Under the pieces are notes generated by a model. The model was not told the DNA's origin. It ran no database searches and worked only from the letters and a program-made list of their open reading frames with translations. DNA of 63,698 bases, counting the filler, from Nemertoderma westbladi (Eukaryota; Animalia; Xenacoelomorpha): assembly GCA_032718475.1 (NCBI GenBank). It is 3 parts of 3 records of this genome, joined end to end, with 100 filler letters (N's around TTAATTAATTAA, not from the genome) between each part and the next. Parts side by side here need not be neighbours in the genome. Positions count along the whole stretch, not along the records: positions 48,981 to 63,698 come from JAUCBJ010001102.1; 2 more parts are not named here. One strand, written 5' to 3'. A program made the translations under genes and the position numbers. Positions 1 through 59,655 of the stretch are shown here, piece after piece. Within the stretch, counting starts at the first letter, position 1; every line of letters begins with the position of its first letter.

Positions 1-129
1 TTCTAAAATAACATTCTACTAAATAAAATTAAAGAAAACGATTATAATAAAATTACATAATAATACATACATAAATATAAAACAAAACAAATATAAAATG
101 ATATAGTCACACACCCACTCCATATGTTA

Positions 130-3100
130 TTACGTTATGGAGTCCCTAGATATTTGTCGGATTAGGGAAGTGGTCGTAGGAAGAGTATCTTGCCTTCCAT
201 AGTTTCCGGACAGTTTTTGGTCTCTTTCCAGTAAACATAAACGACCAGCTGGGTGATTGGGTTGTCGTGTTACTTTCTCCGCTCCCTTGGCCTGTCTAAT
301 CTCAGTCGGGTTAAGGTGGGGAGGCCATTCATCTTCTTCTTTACTTAGGGAGTCGGGTCCACCTAACCAGCCGGGAGTATCTATCCGTTCTTGAGGAGTC
401 GCTCCTCTGGAAGCGATGTCGGCTAGATTAATCATCTCGGGGCGATGTCTCCATTGATCTTCATTGGAGTTAATATCGTCATTATCTGAGGAGTATGGTG
501 TTCCCTCAGTTGGGTCGTCCACATCACTGCTCTCCACTTCCCCCTTTACTTGGTATACCTGTTGTTGAGGTAATCTCTCTTTGAGAGTTCTACGGGAAGG
601 ACCAGTGAAGTACCAACCTACTCTAGTTCTTACAGCATAGGTTTGTAGTGGCTGTGGTTGAGCAGGCAGTTTCTCTAATGGCTCGAGCGCCTCATGCGCG
701 TTTTGGCCGATGAGCATTTGCACTCCAGGATAATCGGTTTGGAATCGAGGTATCTCAAGATGTTGGATGCACTCGTCCTCGTCCCAGTTATAAGGATCTG
801 CTTGAGTAATAGCAAAGTTCTTTATAGCCACCATTTTTACTGACCTTATCGCTTGTGTTCCTAACTTATCCTGGGGGGTGGACAACACACCTACATAGTA
901 ATCTGCCGTCAGGGTAGATTTCCAAACCTGCATAATTCCTGACATATTCAATTTAGTCCGGAACTTGGGTTGTCCAGCAAAGATATCTTCGGCTAGTTCT
1001 TGATCGATGAATGTTCCTGTGCTGCCGGAGTCCAGGAGGGCGTTCACTATGTAGCTTTTGTTAAGACCGTGAACTCTTACCTGAACTACAGGAAATTCTC
1101 TGATTCCTACGTTGGAAGCTGGAGCTTTCCAAGATGGTTGTTTGGCGAAAGTAGTTTGGGGAAACTCCTCGTTGATGTCTTTTTCGTAAGTAAGTGCTCG
1201 ATACACTGTGGTATTTATTAGATAACAGGATTCGTTGGCATCGGAGAATTCGTCTGTATAGAATCCTTCCCATTCAGAACTTTGGTCAGTGTCGTTCACA
1301 TCACTGAATTGGACATGTAGTTCGGGCTCACTTACCTGACTCGGGTTGTCTCGTTCGAACTCACTGTGTAACAAAATGTGATGTTTCGCGCCACACTTTG
1401 CACACTTTGCGTCGGAGTAACAGGTTCGCCGTTGGTGTCCTGATCTGAGGCAATTATAGCATAACCGCTTATTCCACAGGACTGTACGTCTGTCTACAGG
1501 GGATTTCTTTAGAAATTCAGCACACGCACTCAAACGGTGGGTCCCATCACACAGCGCACAATTAGGTTTTATGTTACTTACTTTCACTTGCGTAGTTTGC
1601 TGCACTCTCGTTCTTTCTTCGGGCTTCCTCCCGCGCGTTCTGTTGGGAGACTGAGGAGGGGTCTTAGCAACTTGTTCTCTCCTATTATTGGTTCGAGCTT
1701 TGTATTTACTTACGTCCTGGGAGGTTTTGTCAATATAATAAGACCGTTCGGTGTCTTTCCCGCTGTCTTCGTCTTGGGAAACTTGGCTTTCGCCGTCATC
1801 AGTGTAACACACTGGTGTTACTCTTCTCCTGGAAGTGGGTTTATCACTTACCTTATTTTCTGATGTTTTCTCTCTGGCTTGCTTGATGAGTTGTAGTCTG
1901 ACTTCACCATCCAAGAACGACATGAGATCAGCCATGGTAGGGCTTCGTCGTTGTTGGTCATTCATGTACAACACCTTCTTGTCCCAGCGTGTACATACTC
2001 CACCCTTTGGTAAAGTAGAGACTACGGCTCCAATAACCATGGAACTCTGGTATTCGTGCGACTTACCTAACCAGTCCAGTTGTCTACAGATCTCTTGTAT
2101 TTCATCTGAAAATTCTATAATCCCACTACTAAGGAAGTGTCGGGGGGCTACCAATTTTGTATACAGATACTTAGCGATGTTGTCTTTATTACCATACCTG
2201 ATGTTTAATGTATCCCAAACTTGTCTTAATCCATCTGGATGTCCAATAAACTTTAACGCCATTGACTTGGGAGGTCCTTCCAAACACTTGATGAGGAATC
2301 TAAGTTTCTCTCCGTTAGATAGTACAGAGTTCTGTATGCTATCTTTGTAATATTCGTTGAAAGGTAACCATTTCATCTCATCCCCATTGAATTTGACGAT
2401 CTCTCCCACTTTGACCGCTTGGCGGGCTTCTGTTCTAGCCATCTGACGCGTAAAGCTTTCTTGGGCCATCGTGTTATTTAATATCGAATTATCGGTATCC
2501 AAATTTCTCGGATCATTATCAGGTCTATAGGGAATATCATTAATAACAGGTCTATAATCACCCTTAATAGGGTTTGCTATAGGAGTTTCAACTTCACTAG
2601 CAGTATAGATGCGTGTAGGCTCCACACCTTGCGCATGTGATACTTCAGACCTAACGGGTTGACTCAATGTTACCGGGGGCATTGGTATGCCTTTTTGAAT
2701 ATTGACTAATTTGTCGCGTTCTAGCGCGATACTTTGCTGCACTTCTTGCAACTCTGCTCTACTTTCCCTCACTGTTCCCTTAAGTTGGTGGACGGTTTCT
2801 TGCATCTGTCCTAGCAGGAGATTCATCCCCCGCCGTCCCTCTTCCACCCACTCAACCGCCGAAGCGGGAGTCGCCAACATAGTAGCGGGCTGACGCGGGA
2901 CGACGGGAGACAAATTATTGATTTCTCTCTCTGCTATCTGGACAGGGGTGTTTGCATGGGCTGTTCCACCGGGTACAGGCAGTGTAGTGCTATGTAAAGG
3001 GAATTTAGAGTTAAGCTCTGGAAGTGTAGGGGTCTCTAGCACAGAAGTGACTTTGGGAATTACAGGCCTAATTATTTCAGGTTCATCGACTATAGTAGGG

Positions 3101-4731
3101 AGTCTTTTGACCTGGATAAATTGTTCTATGGGTTCTGCACTACCCAAATCTGTGCTAGTTAGCTGTCTTTTAACAGCTGGGGGCAAATCAGGCAATTTGC
3201 GACGGTAATATGTTTTTCTACGCCTACTTAGATGAGATCTATCTCCTCCGCCTTCAGGGTCTGTAGTATCGCCTTCCTCCGATGATGTGTACCCTTGGCG
3301 CTTGGGAGTAGATTTTCTCATCATCTGCATCTGATTAGCAGTATACTGTTTATTTATACTATCTTGTGTCTCTTGCAGATTTTCCAACTCCAGTTGGGTA
3401 ATCCGCTCAGATGCTCTCCTTTCTGCTTCTGCCACTGCCTTTGCCACTTTTCTTTTTGCTTCTACTTCTGCCGCTGCCACCGCCTTTGCTGCTTCACTTT
3501 CTGCTTCTGCATCTGCTATAGCCGCCGCCATATCCGCCGCCTTTTGTTCCTCTATCCTTCTTTTCTTTATTTGTTCTTCTCGGACTCTAGTGAGACGGAG
3601 TTTTTCATCACATTCAGCTTGATTTGCAGCTATCATTTCAGTATCGATCGCGTCCAGTATAAGCTTGGTTCCTTCACTATTAGGGGAAAGTCCATGTAGC
3701 CGTCTCCTCAACTCTTCGTCTCCTAGGAATCGCTGATAGTCGGACAAATAAATGTCGATAGCGTCTCTAGTTCGCGGTTTCTCGGCGGCCTCTTCGCTTT
3801 TCTCTTGAGTAAGGGTGACATCAGTTGGTTCGGTGACATCAGTTGGTTCCTCATAGATTGATCTCTCAGTCAGCTGGGATTTCCACTGTGCTGTTTCCTG
3901 TACTTTGCGATCTACTCGATGTAGCCAAGTTTTGACAGCAACCTGCAGCGACGTGTCCTGTCTTCTTTTGGAAGTTTCCTCAAAGGCTGAGAGGATTAGT
4001 CGAATGCGTAGAGTTCTTTCGCGTATTTGATATAGCAGTTCTTCCTGCTCTTGAGGTCCATGAGGTTGTCGAAACAGCTGCTCTTCCAATCGCTCCAAGG
4101 ATTCGAAGAATCCCTGCACATATCCTGCTGCCGACCTCTTCCAAACAGCTGGATCCATTGTATTTTGAGCCACTCCCATCCTATGTATATCTTCCCAAGT
4201 AGCCTCAGACAGGTCCAACGGGAGTCCGAGTCCGGGAAAGTTCCATTGTGATTCAACAATAGATATCAATTCTTCCCTGGCGTATCCCGCGTAATCATCT
4301 TGGGTCGCTTGCTTATTCTTCGCCCAGTCGGCTTGATGTTCTTCCACCGCAATGAGTATAGTAGTCAGCACTGTAGCAGGAAGAGTAAGAAGGGGGTCTG
4401 AGTAGACTGTATCAGCCATCTGCACTCCATGTTCGGGAGTCAACTCTACAGTGTCCGAACTGCTGGAGCTATCAGGTCTCTGGGAAGTAGGTTCTTGACC
4501 AAGATGTTGCTGCGATAGGACAGCTGCCTCTTGGTCCCGTTTTACCTGTGCCCGAGTGCCTATGATGGACCTATGGTGGACTAGCCTAGGGTCTGATACT
4601 ACGGGAGGGATGACCTTTTTTACAGTAGGAGGTGAGCCGAACTTCTCTATTATTCGCTCCACTCTCCTATCTGAATCACAGATAGTGGTCTCGATCAGAC
4701 TGTCCGACAGGTTTTGCTGAGTGTCAGACAT
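130..4731 (-). CDS. BEL/Pao retrotransposon Gag-protease polyprotein (1533 aa); RT, most of RNase H and integrase absent
   Basis: DUF1759-like capsid region (KFNGDEMKWLPFNEYY...EKLRFLIKCLEG...WDTLNIRYGN). BEL-type Cys/His knuckles (CALCDGTHRLSAC, CYNCLRSGHQRRTC, CAKCGAKHHILLH). Aspartic protease ALLDSGS, then TRVGWYFTGP. Then only the RNase H C-terminal remnant QWRH...NLADIASRG...WLGGPDSL...EWP before the stop. Confidence 0.93.
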   Translation of the reverse strand: MSDTQQNLSDSLIETTICDSDRRVERIIEKFGSPPTVKKVIPPVVSDPRLVHHRSIIGTRAQVKRDQEAAVLSQQHLGQEPTSQRPDSSSSSDTVELTPEHGVQMADTVYSDPLLTLPATVLTTILIAVEEHQADWAKNKQATQDDYAGYAREELISIVESQWNFPGLGLPLDLSEATWEDIHRMGVAQNTMDPAVWKRSAAGYVQGFFESLERLEEQLFRQPHGPQEQEELLYQIRERTLRIRLILSAFEETSKRRQDTSLQVAVKTWLHRVDRKVQETAQWKSQLTERSIYEEPTDVTEPTDVTLTQEKSEEAAEKPRTRDAIDIYLSDYQRFLGDEELRRRLHGLSPNSEGTKLILDAIDTEMIAANQAECDEKLRLTRVREEQIKKRRIEEQKAADMAAAIADAEAESEAAKAVAAAEVEAKRKVAKAVAEAERRASERITQLELENLQETQDSINKQYTANQMQMMRKSTPKRQGYTSSEEGDTTDPEGGGDRSHLSRRRKTYYRRKLPDLPPAVKRQLTSTDLGSAEPIEQFIQVKRLPTIVDEPEIIRPVIPKVTSVLETPTLPELNSKFPLHSTTLPVPGGTAHANTPVQIAEREINNLSPVVPRQPATMLATPASAVEWVEEGRRGMNLLLGQMQETVHQLKGTVRESRAELQEVQQSIALERDKLVNIQKGIPMPPVTLSQPVRSEVSHAQGVEPTRIYTASEVETPIANPIKGDYRPVINDIPYRPDNDPRNLDTDNSILNNTMAQESFTRQMARTEARQAVKVGEIVKFNGDEMKWLPFNEYYKDSIQNSVLSNGEKLRFLIKCLEGPPKSMALKFIGHPDGLRQVWDTLNIRYGNKDNIAKYLYTKLVAPRHFLSSGIIEFSDEIQEICRQLDWLGKSHEYQSSMVIGAVVSTLPKGGVCTRWDKKVLYMNDQQRRSPTMADLMSFLDGEVRLQLIKQAREKTSENKVSDKPTSRRRVTPVCYTDDGESQVSQDEDSGKDTERSYYIDKTSQDVSKYKARTNNRREQVAKTPPQSPNRTRGRKPEERTRVQQTTQVKVSNIKPNCALCDGTHRLSACAEFLKKSPVDRRTVLWNKRLCYNCLRSGHQRRTCYSDAKCAKCGAKHHILLHSEFERDNPSQVSEPELHVQFSDVNDTDQSSEWEGFYTDEFSDANESCYLINTTVYRALTYEKDINEEFPQTTFAKQPSWKAPASNVGIREFPVVQVRVHGLNKSYIVNALLDSGSTGTFIDQELAEDIFAGQPKFRTKLNMSGIMQVWKSTLTADYYVGVLSTPQDKLGTQAIRSVKMVAIKNFAITQADPYNWDEDECIQHLEIPRFQTDYPGVQMLIGQNAHEALEPLEKLPAQPQPLQTYAVRTRVGWYFTGPSRRTLKERLPQQQVYQVKGEVESSDVDDPTEGTPYSSDNDDINSNEDQWRHRPEMINLADIASRGATPQERIDTPGWLGGPDSLSKEEDEWPPHLNPTEIRQAKGAEKVTRQPNHPAGRLCLLERDQKLSGNYGRQDTLPTTTSLIRQISRDSIT

Positions 4732-4814
4732 GTTTAGTTATACAGTTGAATGTCTACTACTATAATTTCAGTTAAAGCAAATCTAGTAATTCAGTATAAC
4801 CACAAGCCTAGCGA

Positions 4815-5115: not shown

Positions 5116-6094
5116 TTATTTTGAGAATAATTGAATTTCTGAATATTTTAGGGCTACTTGGTTACTTTAACTTACTTTGTTACCGTTGTTTAAGCAGTAG
5201 TCCAACTGATAGTGAGACCTAGTTTTGTATGACAGGCCTACTATTTATAAATCGTTTGATTTGATTTATAATATTTATATACCCGTTATATGGGTTTTTG
5301 TCAATATTTGAAATAAATGTTATTATTTCCGGGGGTTTACTACACAGAAACTGAACGCCTCTCAGTGAAGTGCTATTTATTTGACACTAAAACTGATAAT
5401 TCTAATTTACCTAAGTTACTTAATACTACAAATTACTTACGATACGGGTGAGATTAATTCTCTAATTAAACACAACAAAATATTACGGACGAAATTTTTA
5501 GGGTAATTTTACAGGAAGTCTACAAACCAGTCCAACAAAGGGTTAGATTTCTGGCTATTACAAAGGACAGGGTACTACGGTATTTGAATAATAAGTAGTA
5601 GTAAATATATTGTACTGTCCAGATAGGAAAATACCACCGCCTGACGACCTATAACCGTATCGCTATAGGTACAACGTTATGTATCACGGATTGTTCCTAC
5701 CCAGAAGTTAATAGAGCTAACGAATGTGCCTATCAACCACTTTACAACACAAATATACTGCCTACACTAATTACTTCGGAAGGCACTGTACTCTAAACCC
5801 TAAATTAGGTACAAGTACCGGTATAACAAATAATCAGTAGTTAAATATACTTGAACAGTTAAAAGAACCACGGCATCTGCTGGAGTGACCGAAGCACAAA
5901 GTCGTCAGTCTTTACCTACGCCAAGCAGCCCTGATGTAGTACCGGGGTTAGTTTAACTATAACGGTATGTATAACAAGCACAATTACTGTAGGAATAAAC
6001 TTGGGGACATGAATGTTGCGAATAATCGCATAAACTCTGAATAATAAATATTACGCTACCCGTACAGAATACTCAAACAAATACAAACCAAACG

Positions 6095-6607
6095 CTGGCA
6101 GACTACTATCAAGCCTAAACAAACTACTGTATGTGCAGATTCTGAAACTGTTAGTTAGTATGCGTGCTAACACGGTAGTACGACTTACTCTTTAAGAGGG
6201 GATTGACCTTACAGTGTTGACTGCCCCAACTTACTAACGGCGCTTGATCAGACCAACTCTACACACGCAGCAATCCCTTCAGACCCAAAAATAGCTAGAC
6301 AACAATCCAGCCTACAAAATATTTGAGTAATAACTATTACGGTACCTGAACAGACCACACAAACAAACACAGGCTAAAACACTGGCAGACTACGATCAAG
6401 CCTAAATAAACTACAGTATATGCAGACTCTGAAACTGTTAGTTAGTATGCGTGCTAACACGGTAGTACGACTTACTCTTTAAGAGGGGATTGACCTTACA
6501 GTGTTGACTGCCCCAACTTACTAACGGCACTTTATCAGACAAACTCTACACACGCCGTAATCTCTCCAAACCCAACCACAGTCAGACAGCAGCTCAGCCT
6601 ACAATTA
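6095..6607. repeat. Tandem duplication (period 287 bp) in the 5' leader of the BEL element
   Basis: ctggcagactac...gaaactgttagttagtatgcgtgctaacacggtagtacgacttactctttaagagggg... occurs at 6095 and again at 6382, nearly identical. Confidence 0.9.
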
Positions 6608-6924
6608 TCTGAACAATCTGAGCAGGGTCACACGCCTTCTGCTCAATATTAGCCTACTAGTAAATAAAACTGACAGAAATAAGTAAGCTCCAAAAGAAAC
6701 AAGGGGTGTACAGTCCCTAATCTCTTAAACAGCCTACCGGTATACAATAATCAAAAATCGAATAATACTAAAAGTACTTGTACAGCAGTACCGGTACCGG
6801 TGATGACAGTGATTCAAAGTACCGGCTTGCAACCTTATTGCTTACTGCAATAAGATTATAAACTGTTACTGTTCGACAGAACAGTATTAAACTGTATTTA
6901 ATACTTACACTGCAATACAAGATA

Positions 6925-6933
6925 AACTGTTAC
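6925..6933 (-). promoter_or_regulatory. Non-canonical primer-binding site G-TAACAGTT
   Basis: Lies immediately after the LTR CA end. It has no TGG start and is complementary to the LTR motif AACTGTTA (7223-7230, minus strand). Confidence 0.6.
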
Positions 6934-7250
6934 TGTTCGCGCTTTTGAAGACCTTTAGCAGTTTAACCCGCCAAAATTTATATGTCTTTTCGTTAATTAA
7001 AACCACTTTAGCATACGACAATAATTTATGCTAATACGCAAAACATTAGCCGAAGTCAGCCCATGCGCGATCATTCACCCGATGGATCTACACCCGGGAG
7101 ACTGAATTCGGATGCTTGAATTGTATTATTACAGTGTAAGGTTGTAGTGTATACCTAATGTATTATTCGATAGATCGTTAATAATTAATCTCTGACAGAT
7201 ATTATTGACTTTCGGGAAATATTAACAGTTCCTTTAGGACGTGGCGCTTT
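6934..7250 (-). ncRNA. Conserved structured RNA at the 3' (U5) end of the LTR, copy 1
   Basis: Strongly conserved with 58005-58292, with compensatory changes in predicted helices (see findings). Confidence 0.7.
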
Positions 7251-8178
7251 ACCTATTTAAACAGAACTAAGACTTATACTAAACGCAACGATACTGCTGC
7301 TGATTAAAGTATAAAACGTATTCTTTAGGAAATACTTTGTTACCAATCACAATCATACACACTATTCTGCCGACAGTCAGTATATTTGATCACACATAAA
7401 GAGAGCAGTAATTGACTCGCGTAGGGTCTGCTAAATAACATTGGATTCAATACACACCACATTAATATAAATCGCAATTGTTATATATAGCCGGTCTCTC
7501 TAACCTGTAGTGTTATCAAGAAAATTGGGAATTGGGTGATTTATCCGTATTATCCAAATAGCAATATTTCCATCAACAAATATTTACAATTAATAACTGA
7601 CGGTAAAATAACAGTACAAACAATATGATTAATGAGTTAGGTGATATTCGATTCGTGAGATTAGGTAACAGTTTATACTTTCGATAATTCAAGCAGTTCT
7701 GCAGTTCACGGTACAGCAGTATCTATCCAAAAATGCCGGTGTTTCTGGCTTAGACAGCAATAACAACAAAAGTAACAACTCTCTCTCTCTCTCCAGTCAG
7801 AGCGAACACTCTCCATGATTTCCAGGAAAGCTACACGTCGACAGGAAAAATCGCCCTGATTGGCCCAAGCCAAACAAAGAACCACGCTGCCAATGGCTGT
7901 TTCCATGTCAGCAACCAGCTGCTAGATGTCGTAATATGAATCATCACGGCTAAGCTGTGAAAGGTGGTTTGTGCATTACAAGTTTTTGTCTTACCATGTC
8001 CGCTAAAACACGTATATAGCAGAATGATTTTTATGTCCGTTAAAACACCTGTAAAGGTACCTTGCGGGCGAGGGGAATATATATACAGTTAGAAAACCTT
8101 TTTTAGAGTATTCCAGCGCCGGGGGGGGAACTGGCCAGCCAAGGCAAACGTATCAGTTATCCCACAAAAGCTTTTACA
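6934..8178 (-). mobile_element. 5' LTR (1245 bp) of the BEL/Pao element
   Basis: Minus strand starts TGTAAAAGCTTTTG at 8178 and ends AAAAGCGCGAACA at 6934. Both termini match the TSD-bounded solo LTR at 57112-58292. Shared internal blocks include GGTGTTTTAxxGGACATAAAA and CCAATCAG. Confidence 0.88.
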
Positions 8179-17386: not shown

Positions 17387-17660
17387 GGGAGCGGTGTAAA
17401 AGCTTTTGCGGACAAAATAAGTCATTTTGCGCAATGCGCTAAATACTCTAAAAGGGCTAAGAATTGTACAACTACGTGTCTGTCAAAAACCCAGAGTTGG
17501 AATGACGAAATCTACCAGCTGTTCCTTTGTGTGAAGAATCGGCCTTTGTTGACATAGATTTAGCCAATCAGATCAGTACCGCTAGTCGGTGGGGTTGACT
17601 TGTTGACGAGATGCTATTTACAGGCGCATCGGTCAACAATTACTGACCAGGCTGGCATTT
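17387..17660 (+). mobile_element. PPT (GGGAGCGG) plus truncated 3' LTR of the same BEL LTR family
   Basis: TGTAAAAGCTTTTGCG starts at 17395. GCGCTAAATACTCTAAAAGGG matches GCGCTGGAATACTCTAAAAAAGG in LTR1. CCAGCTG and CCAATCAG are shared. Confidence 0.75.
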
Positions 17661-23182: not shown

Positions 23183-26100
23183 ATGGCTGAAATCATTACC
23201 GATTTATCGGAATTGATAAGTCGACGAACTTTGTTAGAGGACCGCTATCTGGAAGCGAGGATATTACACGTGGTTAACTCCTCCAAAACTCTAAAAAGTG
23301 AAGAAAATACGAAAAAGTTCAGAGCATCTTATAATACTATGGTATTTCTAATGTAAGTATTTAAAGAAAATTAGAACAAGAAGCGGTATTCGTTTTCTGG
23401 TGAAGGGCCGGGTGTAGTTTTTTATTTCAACTACTGTAGAGGTAGTCTTTAAAAAGTAATCTGAAATTTTTCATATAGGCCTATAGGTGATTCACGAAAT
23501 GCATAATGCGGGGTTGTGTCTCATATCTGCCAAAAATTTTCTTAAATAGTTAATATCTTAAATAAATATTTCTTTTAAAATATCTTTTTAACGGTGTAGA
23601 AAAATTTCAATATAATTTATTAAAGTTGTTAATATTTATAACTATTTTTGGATAGTTGTAAAACCTGAAAATAAGAAAAAGGATGAAATTATCAATGACA
23701 ATATCGAATTAAACACACATTAAAGTAATCTACTAAATGTCGCTTTCTGTAGCTATTATTAGAAGGCACATTTTTTAATTATTAATAAAATTTGAAAATT
23801 TCGTCGTATTTTCGACCTTAAAAGTAATTTAATTCGAAATAATGTGTGCTTGTTGGTTGTTAGGTGTTGACCAATGGGGGCTTAGATGAATCCACTCAGC
23901 ATTAGCAAATTAGTGTGGGGCGAGCAATGAAAGTAAACAATTATAGGCCTACCTTTACAACGGCTTATGGTCAAAATGTCGAAAGAGCCAAAATGTCGAA
24001 AGAGACAAATTGTCGAAAAGTAGAGTCAAATTGTCGAAAAAGTTTTTGGGCATGTCAAAATGTCGAATTTTTTTTCGACAATATGGCGCACCCCTTTCGA
24101 CAATATGGCGCTTATCCTTTTTTAGATACTTTTGAATTTTGATACTAAATTGTTGAACCTGAGAAATTGGAAACCTGATAATTGATATGGCTAAAGAATT
24201 GTGTATAATATCTCAATAGCAATGGGCAATATAGGCCTATACAGTAAGAGTTATCTTGACTAGCTGACCATTGGGCATTACTCCTCTAAAGCCTGGGGTA
24301 CCAGTCCAATGTCCATCAAACAACGCATGTACATCTTACAGTCATTATAATAAATGTTATTAGGCCATGCAGCCATGTAGTTTGCGAATCGCCCCATCTC
24401 CTCAACCAAGCGTTGGTCCCGTATCTGGATATGTGGAGACTTTGGTTCTAGCAAGGCCTTCATGCGCTGCTGGGAAGTATGTTGATTTAACTGGAAAAAT
24501 TCCAAGATCTCTCCAAGGCACGGATGGAGGCTGGTGAGCCGGGAATGAAGCCCATTGTGGAAACCTTCAGCATAGTTGCTGGTCCTAGGGCCGGTATTTC
24601 CGAACTGTCCCCATCTGATGAATACATCCTGCCGAAGCCAAAATCCAATAAAATATTGTCGAAATTGGAAAACTTTATTGGCTGTTAAAGCGGACATGTT
24701 TGGTAGCTGTTCATTGATCAGAGTATAGGCAACCTGATAGCGATACCCATCAGGAAGGAATGGTAAAGAACGAATCTCTTTGAACCAATACTTTACAGTT
24801 TTACCCTCTGCTGTATCTTCAACACAAACACCTTTGAGGCCAAGGCTGTCTCGCTTCTCGTTTATGGCCTTAGCGAAATGAAAAGCGCATCCTAACACGG
24901 TCGCCATTGGGAAAACTATATTGCAAGCATTCATTGCTGCAAGTTCGAAATCGAAAAGCCACTTAGATGTATTAATTCTGCCACCTTCACCGCAAAGATG
25001 ATAAATGTTATCTCTTAAAGCAGTAAACATCCTGATGTAGCTTCCTTCCGATTGTCCCTTCATCAGAGCGTATCCTAAAACATGGGGCTCTCCACCCACC
25101 ACACCATGCACTGTATACATTTCACCCGGGTTGTGAAATTCGGGAGGCGTAAACTTAAAGTTCCCATCACAGATGACAACTTCGCAATTATTTAACAAGC
25201 GTAGATCATCGTCTGCTGAATAGAGCAGTATTTCTTCTCCCTCAATAATTTCAATTAATGTTGTGTCTACTGTATATAGATTTGTCATTTTGTCGTTCTG
25301 TAGGTGTGTTAGTATTTGGTAATGTTTTAAAACGTTAATAACTCAGCTAATCCTTGATCAAATACAACCAAACTTGGTACACATGTTATTTGGAAAAAGT
25401 TGAGAAATTTTTCGAATATAATTTCCGTGAGGCGTTCAGGATGGGCACAACAAGGCTAATGAACGATGCGAGAGTTGGGTTGATACTCAGTTAATTAATA
25501 ATGAAATCTAACGAAACTTGTTACAAATGTAGTTTGACAAAATTTTATAAATTTTGCGAATTTGCAAATATCATTCAAATTGAAATTGACAATAAAAAAA
25601 ATAGATGTTAGATATTCTTATGATATTAATATTATGTTATTATTATTATTATTAATATTGGTCTCTGCTGGTTGTACAACTGTACAAAATGCTGCAATGT
25701 GACCAGATTTCAAAGTATGGCAAACCTGCACGTCTGGACCTGTACTTCTATCGCATATTTCTGCGCCTCAATATTATTTTTCTGCGCCGTAGTCAAAAAT
25801 TCCGCGCTTGAACAACGTTTTTCTGCGCCTGATTCAATGACATTTTCAAAAAAAATCAAATATCATTTAATCAAATACTAATAATGGAATGTTGTAAGAT
25901 ATTGTTATTTGGTGACCAGGTTATACAGTAGGGCGAAAGCAAAGAGTTTTGCAGTGGATAAGAGTATCCGTTTGCTATAAATTAGCAGATATTTTTGTAT
26001 TTTCGAGACTCTGTATTATTTATAAGTTACGATAATTTTTTTTAGACAAAACCTGGAAGAGCGCATATTGTAAAACTTACTCAAATCATACGTAATTTAA

Positions 26101-36492: not shown

Positions 36493-36610
36493 TTATTTAG
36501 TTATATTAATTAGTTACACACAAACCTCATACAGTACGTTAGTGCACAACCCCCACTGCTGTTCCTGTTATACACACCCTCAAGCGTTAGAGGTTTTGAG
36601 CCTAAAGAGA

Positions 36611-38648
36611 CGACGCCATAAGACTTAACCTCCTCCCTATCCATCCTGTATGCTAGTTCAAACATCGTCACTACAGTACCTCAAACTGATAAAAATTGTA
36701 CTCTAACCAAAGCGGACCGGTAGTATAAAAATCTGTTTAAAATAGGCCTAGGCCTACCACCTACCAGTAATGGATTGCAAGTAATTCCTGTAAGCAGGAG
36801 TAAGTCCAATCTGCCAAACTAGGGTTTAACAGAAGGCACTTTACGGGACCGATGCCGAATCGAATCAGGGCAAAGTCAGAAAGTTCGGGTCGAACCGAAC
36901 CGAATCAAAGCGAAGTTCAGAGAAAGTTGGCAAGTTGTGGTCGTAATTCAGGCTGCAAACCACCACTGAACCGCGCACAACGCCTGCGCACAATTTTTCA
37001 GCCGCGCAATATTGGACAATCAGACAATATACCGCGCATGCACCGAAAAAAACGCGCACACCACATTTTAACAATGTAAACGAAAAACATGCGCGAGCGA
37101 AGCGAGCAAAACTTTTTCATTAACATTGCAAAGTGAAAAAGAAACGTGAGCAAAACTCAAAGTGAACGAAATGTTTTCATTCTAACAGTGCAAAATGCAA
37201 AGAAACGTGAGCGAAGCGAGCGAAATTTTTTGTGGCAAATTATTTTTCTCACTTTTGAATGCATGTAAACTTTTTTACATCTCACCCAGTCATCCACCTG
37301 TACGCGCACTTTACGACTTTTGATCTTTTGCACAGATTACTGCGCACTTTTGTAGTCTTTCACATAATTTCGCGCACTTTTATTTCAATTCCGCGCGCTT
37401 TTACAGTACTGCGCACTATTTCAAATACGCGCACAACGCGTTGCGATTTTTGTACTTCATTTGAACCCTGGGTCGTAATGTCATATTTACGTCACTATAT
37501 TGGTATTTGGTCCGCGGACTGGAGTGCTGTATGTATAGTATAATAAAGTAGCTACAGTTATTTTTCAGGTCTACGTTTAAGATTCATGTTGAACACCCAA
37601 ACTAAACTGCCTGGCCATAATTAAACCATACGACGCCATAAGACTTAACCTCCTCCCTATCCATCCTGTATGCTAGTTCAAACATCGTCACTACAGTACC
37701 TCAAACTGATAAAAATTGTACTCTAACCAAAGCGGACCGGTAGTATAAAAATCTGTTTAAAATAGGCCTAGGCCTACCACCTACCAGTAATGGATTGCAA
37801 GTAATTCCTGTAAGCAGGAGTAAGTCCAATCTGCCAAACTAGGGTTCAACAGAAGGCACTTTAAGGGACCGATGCCGAATCGAATCAGGGCAAAGTCAGA
37901 AAGTTCGGGTCGAACCGAACCGAATCAAAGCGAAGTTCAGAGAAAGTTGGCAAGTTGTGGTCGTAATTCAGGCTGCAAACCACCACTGAACCGCGCACAA
38001 CGCCTGCGCACAATTTTTCAGCCGCGCAATATTGGACAATCAGACAATATACCGCGCATGCACCGAAAAAAACGCGCACACCACATTTTAACAATGTAAA
38101 CGAAAAACATGCGCGAGCGAAGCGAGCAAAACTTTTTCATTAACATTGCAAAGTGAAAAAGAAACGTGAGCAAAACTCAAAGTGAACGAAATGTTTTCAT
38201 TCTAACAGTGCAAAATGCAAAGAAACGTGAGCGAAGCGAGCGAAATTTTTTGTGGCAAATTATTTTTCTCACTTTGAATGCATGTAAACTTTTTTACATC
38301 TCACCCAGTCATCCACCTGTACGCGCACTTTACGACTTTTGATCTTTTGCACAGATTACTGCGCACTTTTGTAGTCTTTCACATAATTTCGCGCACTTTT
38401 ATTTCAATTCCGCGCGCTTTTACAGTACTGCGCACTATTTCAAATACGCGCACAACGCGTTGCGATTTTTGTACTTCATTTGAACCCTGGGTCGTAATGT
38501 CATATTTACGTCACTATATTGGTATTTGGTCCGCGGACTGGAGTGCTGTATGTATAGTATAATAAAGTAGCTACAGTTATTTTTCAGGTCTACGTTTAAG
38601 ATTCATGTTGAACACCCAAACTAAACTGCCTGGCCATAATTAAACCAT
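36611..38648. repeat. Near-perfect ~1020-bp tandem duplication (36611-37630 / 37631-38648) containing a MITE-like element (agggttcaa...ttgaaccctg)
   Basis: Both units start cgacgccataagacttaacc and differ at only a few positions; the ORF-track entries are duplicated. Confidence 0.95.
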
Positions 38649-40014: not shown

Positions 40015-41184
40015 TGTACATTAATTATAGCATACTTTCTGAATTATTCTTCCCATGCTTCTGTAGTCAGCCTGCAACACTACCGGTAGCCAGCTTCTAA
40101 CAATAGGAAGCATGGAGTAGACAGGTAGAGGCGCCGGGGACTGTAGGCCTAGGCCTACCTACCGAACGGACGAGGTGACAGACTACCGGGGGGTCAGATT
40201 AAACAGTTTTTGGCTATTAGATTAATTTGACAGACTGTAAGGACCTTTGATATTCTCGTCTAAAAAAATTCATCCAACTATCCAACCAATTCTGAACAGT
40301 CAAACCTACCAAACACTTATTTTATTTGTTATAAATTAGAACCAATCAGTTTCATCTAAATCTGTCATTACTACAGTATTTTTTGTGGAGCTGTGGAAAT
40401 GATTAGCTAAGACATTTACAATTTGATTTGTTTTATTAGTGGTTGTTGGATTAGGAGAGAGTTGATAGAGTTGAACTCAGGGATTCTCAATTCTATCTTT
40501 AGGGATATAGATTGACTGATGATGACGGAGTAGGCCTACTGTACGAAGTAATAACGCCAACACGGGTCTGTCTGTTAACACTTTAATTCCATATTGACCA
40601 ATATTTGAGCAATAATAATACAGATATTAGTTTTTTCGGATAAAAATTTAATAATGAGTCATTAGTCCACGCCCTTGCCCACACCTCGAAGTACCGATTG
40701 CTGGATTGTCAGCCATTGGCGAGAGTTTCTGTCCTTGGTAACAAAATTTCCTCCCTGAGAGACCGTAGCCTAGGGGTAGACTACAGTTCAGCGGTTGACC
40801 GTATTATCATTGGCTGTCTGTTCCTGGAAAGGAAGATTATTAGTTCTTCCGCTGTTTGTGTGTGGATTAGCAGTGTTTAGCGGATCCTAGAGGGATGGCG
40901 GCCAGACTAGACCCAACACGGGCGAATGAGACCGCATTTAGAACGGCTTGAGGTGTTCGACCTTTGGTATCTGGATCGAAACATACAGGGAAGAACTCCT
41001 TGCAGCCTTGTCCCTCGAGAACCAAAATAAGAACATTTGTGGATTCGGTTCCAATTTAATACTTTGTATATATGTTCTAGGTGTGTAGGTAGGCGTAGGG
41101 CGTGCTGAATTATCTCTACTAATTAAAGTTAGGTAGACTATTATGTAATCTGTGAAGATATTCCAGATTTGTAGATGTATTCTA

Positions 41185-43191
41185 ATGTGTGATCTTATGG
41201 ATACAGCTACTGTTATTGGTATATGGGATAAGATTTGTCCTGCTTGTAAAGAATTCTGCTACAATAGTCCAGGAGTTCTATTTTGCCATTTTTCTGAATT
41301 TCATATAAAGGAGGATACCTGTATACCGTGCAATTTATCTTTAAACGTATCAACACGAGAGGAACACATTTTACATCATGTAAATATTGTTTTTAACTCC
41401 TGCAATCTATGTGGGGTTTCATGTGACTCAATCCAGAGCCTTGCATCGCACATACGAGTTATGCATGGAGGTAAAATTCATACGAATTTTCAACCTGCTC
41501 TATGGAAAACAAGTCGAGTAAATACCAATACCCAACGAGAAGTTATACCAATGAATCAAACCACCATGCTGGCCAATTCAACTACCGGTACCAACTCCAC
41601 TATGGAAAATAATTTATCAATTATCTATGGAAATACTAAAGGTAGATGTAGCCAAGTTATTGCTGCCTCTTCACTAAATCAGAATGAGGATAAGGAACAG
41701 CCAATTATTTCTTCAGAAGATATTGTTAATTCAGGAAGGAGAGAAAGTGTCTCAGAAATTGGTTTGTGTAATTTAGACACACCGACTCAACTACAACCAA
41801 ATTATATGGATACGCCTAGTGGATCTGATCTCAGTGTAAGTTCAAGGGATGCTGATAAATGGAAACCTTTAACAAGTTATGGCGACATTGCTGCATTTAT
41901 TGATAAGACACACATCTATAAGTGTGCATATTATTATGGTTCTAACAGTTTAAAGCCAATTAATGCTTATGAAGCTAAAATCCCATGTTGTAATTGTGGT
42001 GAAATATGTAATGGTTATAAACTCTTAAAAGAACATTTTTATCAAGTACATACAAATAACATAAACAGTTGCACCATTTGCAACATTAGTTTTAATGATA
42101 TTTCTGCTCTTAATCGCCATATGTACAGGCATCTGGCTAAGGCAAGGTTTACATGCTCTGTTTGCAAAAAATCGTTTCCTGAACGATTGTATCTTTTGCA
42201 ACATTTGAAATCATTTCACAGGTTGTCAGAATTTGTAACTCAAGGTAATGAATTTATGGAGTGCAGTGATACATGTAATAATGGAACTCTTCATCATGAC
42301 TCAATAGTTTCAAATACCAAAACTCGGTTCATTGTTGCTTCACCAGGTATAGAACAAGATATCGAAGTTGCACTATTTGGCAAGGGACTGGAAAAGAACC
42401 CCAAAGGCCAACGCACTGAATTACTCCATGTTGTGGCTTCTAAATCGCCCCCTGTCATAGAATCATATTCACTTTTTACATGTTCTAAATGCATTATGGA
42501 ATTCCAAGACTACACGCAATTTGTTAATCACAAAGTAAATAACTGCGGTGATGCTAGCACAGATGCAATTTCTACAAATAGTTCTTTGGAATTGTCAGGA
42601 AATAAAGATAGTCTTGTGGATTCTAATTGTGCTACAATGGTACATAAGGTGAATGAAAAAATGGAATCTGTTCGCAACAACAACAAGGAAGAACACAAGA
42701 TAGTAAAAAAAATCATTCGTGATTTATATTGCCAACATTGCAAAATGGTTTTCAGTAATTTATCTATCTTGAAGCATCATTTGAACAATATGCACGAGTA
42801 CTCTAGCATTGAAAATATTGAACTGGAGCCGAGTATACCAGGACCAGCTTCTAATAATGTAATTGATTCGATATCCCCTCAACCAATGAATGCAGCCCAT
42901 GCTGATTCAATACGAGACGAATCATCGCCTGGTGGAATACCAACTCAAACATTCCATGGGTTCCATGTTGACCATTCGGTAGTTCAACCAGTTTATTCAC
43001 CAGAACCAAAGCGACGTATGTCTGCTTCACGTCTCAATGGTAGCCACTCCGACTCTGTCAATGTCAGTTATTTGAGGAGCATGATTCAGGCTAACTCTTG
43101 CGTTGGTCGAGGATTACAACCCCAAATACGATTGATTAAGTTCTCGCTTCCAGGAGGTGATGACGTGATTACTTACAGTGGGCAGGGATGA
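41185..43191 (+). CDS. C2H2 zinc-finger protein (single long exon; true start uncertain)
   Basis: Multiple CxxC-x12-Hx3-4H fingers, e.g. CNLCGVSCDSIQSLASHIRVMH, CTICNISFNDISALNRHMYRH, CSVCKKSFPERLYLLQHLKSFH and CQHCKMVFSNLSILKHHLNNMH, in a 679-codon open frame. Confidence 0.9.
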   Translation: MCDLMDTATVIGIWDKICPACKEFCYNSPGVLFCHFSEFHIKEDTCIPCNLSLNVSTREEHILHHVNIVFNSCNLCGVSCDSIQSLASHIRVMHGGKIHTNFQPALWKTSRVNTNTQREVIPMNQTTMLANSTTGTNSTMENNLSIIYGNTKGRCSQVIAASSLNQNEDKEQPIISSEDIVNSGRRESVSEIGLCNLDTPTQLQPNYMDTPSGSDLSVSSRDADKWKPLTSYGDIAAFIDKTHIYKCAYYYGSNSLKPINAYEAKIPCCNCGEICNGYKLLKEHFYQVHTNNINSCTICNISFNDISALNRHMYRHLAKARFTCSVCKKSFPERLYLLQHLKSFHRLSEFVTQGNEFMECSDTCNNGTLHHDSIVSNTKTRFIVASPGIEQDIEVALFGKGLEKNPKGQRTELLHVVASKSPPVIESYSLFTCSKCIMEFQDYTQFVNHKVNNCGDASTDAISTNSSLELSGNKDSLVDSNCATMVHKVNEKMESVRNNNKEEHKIVKKIIRDLYCQHCKMVFSNLSILKHHLNNMHEYSSIENIELEPSIPGPASNNVIDSISPQPMNAAHADSIRDESSPGGIPTQTFHGFHVDHSVVQPVYSPEPKRRMSASRLNGSHSDSVNVSYLRSMIQANSCVGRGLQPQIRLIKFSLPGGDDVITYSGQG

Positions 43192-54286: not shown

Positions 54287-57111
54287 TCACCGTCTATCAC
54301 GTTTGCAAAATTGCAAAAAGTATTTTATCAATGTTCATGATCATGAATTTAAGTAATTCTTGTGTTAAATTACGCGCAAGACTCTCCACTTTCACTTGAT
54401 ATAAGCCACGTGTGAAATGATTGAGATTAAATGTGTATTTGAATGGATCTAAAATCACCCACCATAGAAACCAATGTAAGAAATTATCAGAGCACTTCGT
54501 AGTGACGTCAAATCTGTAGCAGCCAATCACAGCTGATTTTCAAAATTGGCTTCCCGCGCTTACTTAAACCCACCATTTCGACGGTTTCCTCGTGTTTTTA
54601 CAAAAACCACACCCCGCCACTCGATTCAGGGCTGTGACGGGATCCGAGTTGGCAAAGGATCCGGACCGGTGTGTGTTTCGAGTCGTATGGAATATACGCG
54701 TCGCCGCGTCTGCTTGGATATTGAAAGGCTGTCGAAGGGGCTGAAAGGCCGAAGGCCGTTATAATAACTGAGTTTATAGTTTGCGGTTATTGATAATATC
54801 AGATATATAAAGCACAATCAGAATAGTGTAATAATAGCAGTAACAACGACGACGGTTAAAAACCGTCTGACTTCTACACTCTACATAGCCAACTGAACCA
54901 CGATTAACAGAGTAACGGTTACATGGGAGATTACACATTCCTACCTATGTTTGACCTGCCAGTACATGCGCGCTAATTGATGGAAAGCCGCCCCGCTATT
55001 GGTTGATCTACTCCTTCGCCAATCCCTATTTTCCCCTGATGTGCTGGCATCTCTCTCTAGCTGGCAGTGTATATTGCCCCGTTGCCTTTAGTATGCAATA
55101 TTACATTAGTGATATTGCATATCTAATCGTGATTTGTAAATCACGACTTTCCCCATTCTCCGCTGGGTGGTGCAGCGAATTGGATCCGCTAACAAGGGCA
55201 CCTTGTTACCCCTTATTGGATAGTTATTTTTAGTTATATATTATACAGAACACACCCGAACACACTCCAAAAACTGCCGAACACAATCGAGCACAGACGA
55301 AAATAGAAAGAGCACAAAAAAATAACACCGGGTACCAACTTTTATTATTATCTGTGAGGGAGTGTGAGTGAGAGGAAAGCCAGCACGCTGCGCCACATCC
55401 TCCATTCTGCTCTGGTTATAAAGCAATCAAGGTGTCTATCTATCTGCAGTGCGCAAATTTAAATAATACAACAATCAATGGTTGATGACATATAGTCCTG
55501 AATACTCTATAAATGAGAATTATCTAACAATTTTCAAGCCCGTCGATTTAATACAATTATGATTTATAATTATTAATTTATAATTTTAATGTTCAGAATT
55601 AATAATCTAGACATAAGAATCGGCTATCTATTAGTATTTGTCCAATCGGTGGTTCATTATTTTAGGTGGGAATTTGAGACAGGGGGAGGGGGGATTTATT
55701 TATAAATTGAAACCTCACTCACCGAAAACACCAAGAACTAGTTTGTGTTTCGAAACGCAATGTGATATAGATTAGTAGAAAAATTTGGGTGGGGGGTGTG
55801 GGAGGGGGGAGGGGGGGGTGATGTCCGTGTCACCGGAAAATGACAATATTACGGGTGTAATGGTTGTTGGTTTGATAATTATTATTTTATTAGTTTTATT
55901 ATATAATCACATTATTGTTGTGTATATTATGGGCGTACTTAGACTTTGCCTGTCTGTTATATTGTTTGCACAGTAACGTTGCGCAGTTTCCCATAAGCCA
56001 TAAGCTCACCCATACACTACCTAATCTTACATTATTAACGTACAGACTGAATTACAGTTTCTACTCTACAGTTTCTACGAATATCTACTCTACCGGTGGA
56101 TATGGCGGATGTAGCACCGGTGAGGAATCTGCATACCGAATCACTCCAGAGGGAAAGAAGGTTTGCCTTATTGTCAACATCACTGAGTTTTATACTTCTG
56201 CAGATGCGCCGGCCACAGACCCAAAACAAAGTAGGCAGCAAAGATCAGGTACCGATGTGGAACACATAAAACGGGTATTTGGCAACGATCTGCGTTGTCA
56301 AATAATCGAGTTTGACACTATTATGACGGAGCTGAAGGCTCCATCCCGGCATGTGCCCGGAACAATAGATAGGGACAACCTTCGTAAAGGTTTACTACAC
56401 ATACGCGATGAGAAATTGGCGGACACGGAATGCCTGTTCGTCTTCGTTATGAGTCACGGAACAAAAGGTGTAATTTGCACCTCAACATTTGAGGAAACGG
56501 AACCTATTCGTAGCATTGCCGAGTTGTTCTCTAGCAGCTGTTTAGCCCTACGAGATCCCCCGAGACCCCGGGTATTATTCTTCGAAGCATGCCAGGAACA
56601 AAAGTCAAATGTAAAAACTGAAACGTTAATCCTAAGTGACACAATCTTTGATGATATGGCTCTTGTTTTGAGTGCTAGTACCGGACAAAATGCTCATGGT
56701 TATGATAGACAAGGAACCGCATTTGTTGTCCGCGTGTGCCAAACAATTAAAAATATCGTCAGCCGATCTGCGGCTAGCGATATTAGGATATTATTTCAAG
56801 AATTAACGAAGCGATCTTCTGTATATCAGGATAAGGAAGATGATATTCACTCTACCCATGTCGCCTTGGTCCGAACCCTTATTTATCCACTCTTTCTCGC
56901 TGATTTTATTAACCCGCCGCAGCCCCCTTTCGTTATTAAGTTACAGAAGAACCAGCACGAAATATCATCTCGTATTACTAATTTCAATGAAGTAGTTGTC
57001 GTGCTGAAAAGTAAATTCGTTATAAATGCAAACGAGGCGGAAGAAGTCAATAATCAAAAAACAACCATAGATAAAATGAATTTTCTAATTGATATTTTGA
57101 TAAAGAAGAAG

Positions 57112-58292
57112 TGTAAAAGCTTTTGCGTGATTAACCGGTTATTTTCCCCGTAAAGTACTCTGTAGTTGGTTTACCAGGCATAAAAAGGCCGTGTCCTTGC
57201 TGTACTGGTGTTTTAGAGGACATAAAAGTCATTTCTTCTGTATTTGTACTTTAGAGGACATAATCCGCAATCTCGTGACGCGATAAGCTAGATACTCTTG
57301 AAAACAGTGTCGCTACCATGACGACGGCTAACAGCTGATATTGCCACGTCGACATTTCTTTGTTTCTTTGTTCTCTCGTTGTTCGGTTGACCAATCAGAG
57401 CGTTTTTTGTCTCTGTGTTGGAGGTGGATACAGAAACTCAGTAGTTCAGTGTTATGTTTTTGCCCAGAGCCTAAGAACATCGGCTTTTGGCACCTCCGTA
57501 TATCAGCATTCTTTAGCTTTACATTAGTAGGCTTAATTATAGAACGTATATCTGTTATCTAACCTAACCATACCAATGCAAACGAGTTACCGAGTTAACT
57601 CACTCACTTAATAATCATTTATACCTTAACTTTACTGCTTTTACTGTCGGTTATTCATTATATTGGTTGATGAAATATTATATCGGAATACTGATCAATA
57701 ATCAGACACCCAACCTTCTTGATATACTAAAGGTTAGAGAGACCGGTTACAGATAAACGATTGCGACCTATGTTAAGTGGTTTGAAGTGAATCTAATGCT
57801 ATTTCATATGCCCGACATAAATTGTATGTTGCTCTCTTTATACGTGACCAAATTTAGTGAAGGTCGGCAGATTAGTGTGCAGTATTGTGCAGCATTGTGT
57901 ATGAGTGTAACTGATAACAAAGCATCTCCTAAAGAATGCGCCATATACGTGAATCTATAGCCTTTTCGTTGTGTCTAGTTTAAGTCATAACTCTGTTTAC
58001 ATATTTAGAGCGCCACGTCCTAAAGGAACTGTTAATATTTCCCGAAAGTGAATAATATTTGTCAGAGATTATATATTACGATCAGTCGAATAATACGGTA
58101 GGCTTACACCATCAATCATTAAGCTCCGAATTCAGTCTCCCGGGTATATCCAGCGGGTGAATGATTGCGCATAGACTGGCTTCGGCTAATGTAGTGTATC
58201 AAATACTCGTCATAGGCTAAAGACTATCTATCATCTAAAAGACATTCTAATTTTGGCAGGTTAAACTGTCAAAGGTCTTAAAAGCGCAAACA
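57112..58292 (+). mobile_element. Solo LTR (1181 bp) of the BEL family with 5-bp TSD AGAAG
   Basis: TG...CA ends. AGAAG at 57107-57111 and 58293-58297. Homologous to 6934-8178. Excision restores the caspase reading frame. Confidence 0.93.
58005..58292 (+). ncRNA. Conserved structured RNA at the 3' (U5) end of the LTR, copy 2
   Basis: Helices CCGAA/TTCGG, CAGTCT/AGACTG, TTTGGCAG/CTGTCAAA and AAGAC/GTCTT, plus pseudoknot TTGCGC/GCGCAA; several covary with copy 1. Confidence 0.7.
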
Positions 58293-59655
58293 AGAAGAGC
58301 TACGACTTCTTTCTACATTTCATCTCTGCGTTGAAAATCGCAAACCAGAGTTACCTTGCCGAGCTTTTAGAATAAATCTTACGAAGAAATTGTAATTTTC
58401 ATCAACTCTCTGATGAAAGACACTAATGTGGAACACAGATAACCTAGATCGGTTGCTGAAGATTTAAATGGAAAGTTTTCTCAATAAGTGCGGACAATAC
58501 CAATTTCCTAATTAATCATATAGAAATGTCAGATAGGGGGGAAACTGGACGCAATGAAATGTCATCCCTCTCCAGGGGAAATTCGACGCAAATAACAGAT
58601 GATTACTCTCAAAAATAAAACTGTAAGCTGTTCTACTGTGTTTAGTTTATTGTTTTGGTTAAAATAACGTGTCACTGTAACCTGCTCCTTTCCCTAAATT
58701 AAGAATTTAACATTGAGGCGGGATATTAATTCGCCAAGGCGGGTTTTGCGTCCAGTCCCCCCCCCCCCCCCCCCCCCCCTGTCTCAGAAATGTACTATGT
58801 TGTACAATCTTAGGAATTGTTTATTTTGTTTGTAAGACTTGATAATTATACAATATTGTTGAGAAGAGGAATAATTATTTATTGCATGGGAAAAAAGTAG
58901 GATTTTTTTTCACTATGCGAGAGATATAGATTAGAGAACATAAATAAAGATCAAGATAGTCAATAAAGATTTGAAAGCCTACGTTTTTTGGAAAATTGAA
59001 GATGCTGGTGATACTAAATATTCATGTACAAGTATTTGTAAAAAATTAGGAAATGATTCCTTATTTGCAGCCAACCAACGTAAAACGCTCTTCTCGTCCC
59101 GTTTAGTTGGGATAATTGACATATACTTACTTATCTACTTCTGAATTCATAATATTAATAAATTCAAATTCCTTATCATGACCTTGCTGTGTTGCTGATC
59201 ATGATCCAGCACGTTATCTATCAATGTAGGACCTAACGCCCAAAGGACCAAAAGACGTGGTGTGGTACTCTCCCTCCCTCCAGTTCTGTTCATGCATAAA
59301 GGTACCGTATAGCTGATTCAAGGAAAAAAAAAGTGGTGATATATAAAAAATCCGGCTTTGGCCAGAATTCCGGCCGGATTTTTTATACAAATCCTGCTCC
59401 GGCCTGGCCGGTTTGAAAATAGTCAATCCGGCACATCCCTACTGCAGATGAAGGCGGTTCTAATGGTATTTAGATTACATTCCAAAGACTAAAAATAAAC
59501 CAACACAGTTGGTTAAATATTTTAAATAAATAACACAGATTGCTAAATAGGCATTTATTTAACGGCTTTATGTATCTAAATAATTTTAAAATTAGATAAT
59601 CTGGCCATGCCAACAGTAAGAAAAGTTATCGAACTAGGTACGTATTTCCAAATAC

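Follow-up and report, generated by a model that had tools for sequence, protein, structure and literature searches.

In the retrotransposon Tf1, the cut that frees the primer is made by the RNase H of the reverse transcriptase (RT). Self-priming was described for the Tf1/sushi elements and, in the accessible text of one report (PMC6317226), is predicted for Tcn1 and TAR; it is also predicted for some plant lineages. According to the accessible parts of the respective reports, priming of Tf1 needs a central duplex and two duplexes adjacent to the primer-binding site (PBS) (bioRxiv 10.1101/2022.12.06.519325), and the Ty1 pseudoknot is required for reverse transcription, not for packaging (PMC3681743). 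Among the main texts of freely available papers, no paper was found on self-priming of BEL/Pao elements, nor did any describe a large structure in U5 or an RNA resembling group I in animal LTRs.

The window analyzed here is the whole stretch of 63,698 nucleotides from Nemertoderma westbladi (assembly GCA_032718475.1), in which an initial annotation had proposed a covarying, pseudoknotted RNA of about 290 nt at the U5 end of a BEL/Pao LTR. Both LTRs and all helices named there were found exactly where they had been placed. Copy 1 (6934..8178, minus strand) is the 5' LTR of a BEL/Pao element; copy 2 (57112..58292, plus strand) is a solo LTR flanked by a 5-bp target duplication (57107-57111 and 58293-58297). 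The assignment to BEL/Pao was confirmed. The LTR begins with TG and ends with CA, which together with the 5-bp target duplication is the pattern of BEL/Pao elements; furthermore, the copy-1 frame contains a DUF1759 Gag region (PF03564, E 8e-13), and the Pao domain PF05380 is present in 40 of the 42 homologues of this frame. The frame of 1535 aa (130..4737, minus) consists of BEL/Pao Gag (DUF1759) and protease, followed by a short match to the part located behind RNase H. A profile of the homologues matched it only at profile positions 101-677 and 1227-1281 of 1808, and no match to RT was obtained in the frame with the profile derived from 27 of the 42 homologues. Judged by its sequence, the copy-1 element, being without RT, RNase H and integrase, is a non-autonomous or deleted copy. 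Although RT and RNase H are gone, the reading frame at 130-4737 (minus) is unbroken, which suggests a family encoding only Gag and protease, not random decay.

The insertion of copy 2 is polymorphic, since exactly 1186 nt were skipped at this site in contigs from two of the four sequencing runs. Copy 2 interrupts a caspase-CARD frame (55894-57153, plus) shortly before the end of this frame, which has no introns, a C-terminal CARD match and look-alikes from animals. From the largest sequencing run, 8982 contigs were aligned to the window; the family is therefore large and diverse. Among the variants listed (40 of 203), 58166 T>C and 58132 T>C were majority variants in all four runs. The start of a third related LTR was observed at 17395-17630 (plus); it shares the first 16 nt, the preceding purine tract and CCAAT, and is apparently truncated ahead of the U5 domain. 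The leader of the copy-1 element comprises 2.2 kb (6908-4740, minus) and contains a tandem duplication of 281 nt at 6038-6604. About 25 nt past the LTR end, it carries a splice-donor-like GTAAGT, given which the Gag mRNA may be spliced. Additionally, the window contains a MULE transposase frame (24278-25342, minus), a multi-C2H2 zinc-finger frame (41149-43191, plus) and a near-perfect (99.7%) tandem duplication of 1020 nt at 36610-38648, which is possibly an assembly artefact.

Two full LTR copies were compared (n = 2), and a leader is present only at copy 1. The identity of both copies was 49% at 57300-57640, 76% at 57640-58004 and 81% at 58005-58292. The end of about 290 nt singled out initially is indeed conserved above the rest of the LTR (81% vs 49% at 57300-57640), but it does not mark the border of conservation. 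Identity rises near 57640, and the conserved unit therefore comprises about 650 nt instead of 290. This R-U5 unit (57640..58292, plus; copy 1 approximately 7608-6934, minus), delimited by two-copy identity, is non-coding, as no coding frame common to both copies was found within the 650 nt. Its best conserved part (58005-58110) showed no local fold (z +1.3 and +0.95) and includes a run of 41 nt which is identical in both copies and likewise without local fold (58009..58049, plus). Sliding windows located a fold signal at 58068-58277 on the sense strand with z values of -1.7 to -3.6; it was absent there on the antisense strand. According to these folding models, the signal is confined to the last ~170 nt. 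Hence, a structured RNA was correctly recognized at this place, but it does not extend over 290 nt, the first ~105 nt being without local fold.

Helix 1 connects its extended 5' arm (58162..58170, plus; copy 1: 7073-7065) by 8 of 9 pairs to the 9 terminal nt of the LTR (58284..58292, plus; copy 1: 6942-6934), which in copy 1 are located directly 5' of the PBS. Helix 3 (58126..58185, plus) comprises 12 pairs with three one-sided changes and encloses an invariant hairpin (58139-58157) together with the 5' arm of helix 1. A terminal hairpin with 9 + 4 pairs (58240..58278, plus) reached z values of -3.2 and -3.9 in the two copies. In a core alignment of 181 columns, all 37 modelled pairs were kept in both copies. 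Seven of these pairs are changed, one by a two-sided change in helix 1 and six by one-sided changes via G-U wobble, and pairing is maintained in all seven. Substitutions thus preserve pairing as claimed, whereas the term covarying was too strong for a single two-sided change. The two-copy consensus fold was better than 500 of 500 column shuffles (z -4.9, for shuffles that do not keep dinucleotides). Helix 1 is the strongest helix common to both copies over 660 nt, and 2 of 60 shuffles equalled it with a two-sided change; the 9-mer at the LTR end has a single 8/9 Watson-Crick partner in each copy, the next best partner reaching 6. Blind tests gave weak results: the fold of copy 2 tested on copy 1 reached p ~0.04-0.05, and the fold of copy 1 on copy 2 was not significant. 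Taken together, the data support a selected and likely functional RNA structure in the terminal part of U5. Helices 1 and 3 cross each other, as the proposed pseudoknot demands, and the pseudoknot is seen only in this crossing. Nested folds containing just one of them scored equal or better, and folds with helix 1 or helix 3 were 1-6.5 kcal/mol apart, in opposite directions in the two copies. Since single-helix folds score as well, the two helices may be alternative states rather than a coexisting pseudoknot in these models.

No match at gathering score was obtained with Rfam in the window, and none that was meaningful at E<=10 in either LTR. ARAGORN found no tRNA in the window; the structure is thus neither a known Rfam RNA nor a tRNA-derived SINE by these searches, in agreement with the initial view. 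HDV, hammerhead, twister, pistol, RNase P, telomerase, IGR-IRES and group II RNAs were dropped by eye, and none of them gave an Rfam match. A covariance model of the core was built, as had been proposed, and identified both window copies, but no others in 23 sources, in any of 22 related loci or in the five genomes behind these loci. A metagenome scan with a 19-mer yielded six chance matches without flanking similarity, and viral contigs matched neither a second 19-mer nor either of two protein queries. A gapped P7-like pattern was found at six viral loci, none with an Rfam match, which is roughly the chance level by estimate; phage records gave no match.

A TGG tRNA primer site was absent after the 5' LTR. 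The PBS, i.e. the first 12 nt after the LTR (6922..6933, minus), is exactly complementary to a predicted self-primer (7665..7676, minus) located 731 nt before the LTR end. The complement begins exactly at the LTR end, and its length of 12 nt was reached in none of 2000 shuffles; no splice junction was found across which the match would be extended. In copy 1, the start of the 12-mer lies within a TATA-like hexamer. At the aligned positions, copy 2 deviates from the primer of copy 1, and it has lost its own PBS. Extended helix 1 reaches the LTR end and thus the base that directly precedes the PBS. On the other side, leader arm 1 (6904..6917, minus) pairs with U5 at 7140-7127, just 5' of helix 3, and leader arm 2 (6873..6896, minus) pairs with a conserved U5 block at 7373-7348. 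The leader windows +12..36 and +37..61 scored 31 and 32 against U5, values obtained with 4 and 2 of 600 shuffles, respectively; the maximum of 267 deeper control windows was 28 and thus below both arms. A third leader match at +165 was weak (27 of 600 shuffles) and was left out of the duplex count. Predicted duplexes with LTR sequence downstream of the primer are present on both sides of the PBS, the leader side being known from copy 1 alone. Furthermore, a partial duplicate of the LTR end, the PBS and the first leader arm follows 64 nt downstream (6875-6840, minus), and the match of the duplicated PBS to the primer comprises 13 nt.

A scan of genome contigs revealed 22 BEL/Pao loci (L007-L028) inside bacterial genome assemblies, which are likely to represent contamination by animal host DNA; one of them, L020, is located in a 1.4-Mb Wolbachia contig. 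Six of the eight loci with a readable LTR-leader junction had a self-complement of 11-12 nt at the PBS (null <=1/100), the letters differing between loci. Five of these complements span a GT-AG junction, and one is contiguous (11 nt). Of the remaining loci, L023 is cut by the contig end and showed a complement of 8 nt (4/100 null), and L020 has a TGG site instead of a self-complement. One further self-complement was found among 12 single-LTR loci scanned; L014, which resembles a further splice-junction case by eye but did not pass the filter, was excluded from all counts. Three junction bases differ between L008 and L009, and the PBS changes accordingly. In L007, L008, L009, L018, L026 and L028, only the joining of a GT-AG splice junction within the LTR creates the primer; the intron of the 5' LTR would therefore have to be spliced and the 3' copy kept. 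The distance from primer to LTR end is 44-149 nt in the relatives as compared to 731 nt in the window element, which argues against the need for a large RNA at the primer cut in these elements. AATAAA follows the primer in five of six self-priming relatives, the exception being L010, which has a short U5; neither AATAAA nor ATTAAA was found in the two window LTRs. From the sequences compared, self-priming is common to the group, and the large U5 domain is particular to the window family.

We consider it about an even chance (probability roughly 0.5) that the conserved U5 domain is a priming scaffold which would hold the self-primer in place to be cut by the RNase H of RT. A ribozyme, an RT-recruiting scaffold or a packaging element had been suggested initially; among these three guesses, a scaffold for RT priming is best supported because the structure abuts the self-complementary primer site. 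The RNA would fold into a three-part knot similar to the Tf1 pretzel, with the primer:PBS duplex in the centre, one duplex on its 5' side (helix 1) and one or two on its 3' side (leader duplexes). RNase H would cut after the twelfth primer base and thereby create a 3'-OH; since the copy-1 element is without RT, the enzyme would be supplied in trans by an autonomous partner element. RT would then copy through helix 1 and U5 and jump to the 3' LTR. Helices 3 and 1 might coexist as a pseudoknot or alternate during RNA synthesis. Primer, PBS and leader duplexes come from the single copy with a leader and hence offer no within-family covariation to weigh. A plain scaffold leaves two things unexplained, namely the conservation of 650 nt as compared to less than 150 nt in relatives, and the unfolded invariant run of 41 nt.

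Alternatively, U5 could be a ribozyme derived from a group I intron, which would cut the element's own RNA and so provide the 3'-OH primer for reverse transcription; we regard this as a minority reading and as rather unlikely. Primer:PBS would correspond to P1 and helix 1 to P10, the LTR end and the PBS would form an internal guide on the 3' side of the core, and G58159 would serve as the terminal G, with the 133 nt behind it as the second exon. Helix 3 would represent an off state hiding the 3' strand of P7 until the LTR end is transcribed, so that only the 5' LTR could react, and the domain would take the place of the spliceosomal intron found in related families. No group I core had been seen by eye in the initial annotation, and neither Rfam nor a blind model gave a match, but candidate helices P3 to P9 can be placed in order. 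This hypothetical core (57767..58159, plus), assembled by eye and with a descriptor, comprises P3 (57767-71/58098-102), P4 (57778-83/58010-15, the 3' strand within the 41-nt run), P5 (57787-92/57995-58000, with a two-sided change), P6 (58016-17/58060-61, the strand 58016-17 within the same run), P7 (58065-70/58134-38) and P9 (58139-57), followed by the terminal G at 58159, all on the plus strand. G58067-C58137 and a bulged A58066 occur in both copies and would be the guanosine-site feature of P7 if the placement is right. The descriptor motifs were taken from the RF00028 consensus and 12 real introns, and the strict form was written post hoc, after the candidate had been seen. Applied to both copies, it returned a single placement, identical to that made by eye, with a score of 24/43, a value that none of 3072 column shuffles and one of 3157 block shuffles attained; among 106 overlapping windows of natural two-copy pairs, 12 passed with a maximum of 21 and none reached 24. 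The P7 motif with P9 and G was equalled by 17 of 6892 shuffles, and the P7 motif alone (15/23) by 153 of 6892. However, the loose descriptor was not significant (22/43, 107 of 560 shuffles; the 12 real introns score 29-36). On single sequences, the strict form passed 613 of 700 arbitrary windows, 66 of them with at least 24, and it placed its best hit elsewhere when each copy was analyzed alone; just 8 of the 12 real introns passed it. The core strands are identical at 59 of 62 positions as compared to 366 of 500 elsewhere, a comparison that is partly circular, and the invariant blocks 57736-41 and 57832-37 are mutually complementary. The 133 nt behind the candidate G are comparable to the 44-149 nt in relatives. 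Helix 1 begins three bases behind the candidate G and extends up to the base directly preceding the G of the PBS, which we take to be the register of P10. With GIR1, a precedent exists for a group I core with a new job and an off helix, according to the accessible text of PMC3679873. The Rfam group I control detected T4 td and nrdB, but neither LTR gave a group I or GIR1 match at E<=10, and the blind model derived from 12 real introns found nothing at the proposed P7. By eye, the candidate has five of the eight columns of P7 and J8/7 that are invariant in the 12 real introns and misses three, and the last P7 pair is mismatched in both copies. Moreover, nuclear group I introns are reported only from rDNA of protists and fungi, and the relatives self-prime without such a domain. 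At the primer end, the pair would be C-G instead of U-G, the pair described as critical at group I cut sites in the accessible text of PMC8395846. By the tests run, the candidate core is not a member of the group I family, but it could, with rather low probability, work like one. If this RNA does cut itself, an animal nuclear genome would contain a large ribozyme with a new task, namely the making of a replication primer.

The domain could also serve mainly as a packaging or dimerisation signal bound by Gag and kept because the family is non-autonomous, with the adjacency of the PBS being incidental. Such a role would fit a frame that retains Gag and protease and no RT, long conserved stretches without local fold, which suit protein binding, and the GC-rich, nearly self-complementary arms of helix 1. 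It predicts neither the register of helix 1 against the PBS nor the leader duplexes, and the Ty1 pseudoknot, in the accessible part of PMC3681743, acts on reverse transcription instead; we judge packaging to be quite unlikely as the main function. We give still less credence to a function at the 3' LTR, where the structure would form or protect the RNA 3' end and replace the poly(A) signal. The absence of AATAAA and ATTAAA from both copies, as compared to AATAAA in five of six self-priming relatives, and a fold that closes at the very LTR end point in this direction, but L010, with a short U5, has no AATAAA either, and leader duplexes form only at the 5' LTR. Finally, the helices could be chance pairings in DNA conserved as protein-binding sites or by gene conversion. 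The comparison covers two sequences with a single two-sided change, and one blind test out of two was not significant, which leaves some room for this, but the consensus fold was matched by 0 of 500 shuffles, the signal is biased to the sense strand, seven of seven changes keep pairing and the 8/9 end helix is unique. Chance appears to be the least probable of the explanations.

Retrozyme-type ribozymes leave ends unable to prime. Retrozymes, in which a hammerhead resides in non-autonomous LTR elements, resemble the window element by their conserved LTR RNA structure, as far as the accessible literature describes it; in the window element, no hammerhead, twister, pistol or HDV match was found in Rfam. 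Group I introns (RF00028) and GIR1 share with the candidate core, as placed, the order P3-P4-P5-P6-P7-P9-G of its proposed helices, the G-C pair with bulged A in P7 and a 3' helix able to switch the core off. The candidate differs by the missing profile match, three of eight invariant bases missing, the lack of U-G at the cut, a guide located 3' of the core and its position in an animal LTR and not in rDNA. The lariat made by GIR1 comprises 3 nt and branches at a U behind P9; in the candidate, the third base after G is U, and the first is A, not C. Among the BEL/Pao relatives, L007, L008, L009, L010, L018, L026 and L028 resemble the window element by a self-complementary PBS at the LTR end and a GT at or beside its start. 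Unlike the window element, six of these seven use a GT-AG-spliced primer, all have a short U5 and none matches the core model. The 5' long-range pseudoknot of Ty1 is likewise located near the PBS and tied to reverse transcription (accessible text of PMC3681743), but Ty1 is tRNA-primed and its pseudoknot reaches gag, whereas the window structure is located inside U5 beside a self-primer. The window family offers a compact, high-copy test case for an RNA that presents its own primer to RT. As far as the available descriptions go, the pretzel of Tf1 and Tf2 from Schizosaccharomyces (Tf1/sushi, Ty3/gypsy) is similar in having no tRNA site, a PBS complementary to its own 5' RNA, and duplexes that flank the PBS on either side and involve LTR sequence downstream of the primer. 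The window element differs from Tf1 in that it belongs to BEL/Pao, like its homologues, and not to the chromoviruses, in that its primer is probably not formed by the first transcript bases, as suggested by the position of CCAAT, and in that 731 nt separate primer and LTR end, where a multi-helix domain with crossing helices takes the place of a simple stem.
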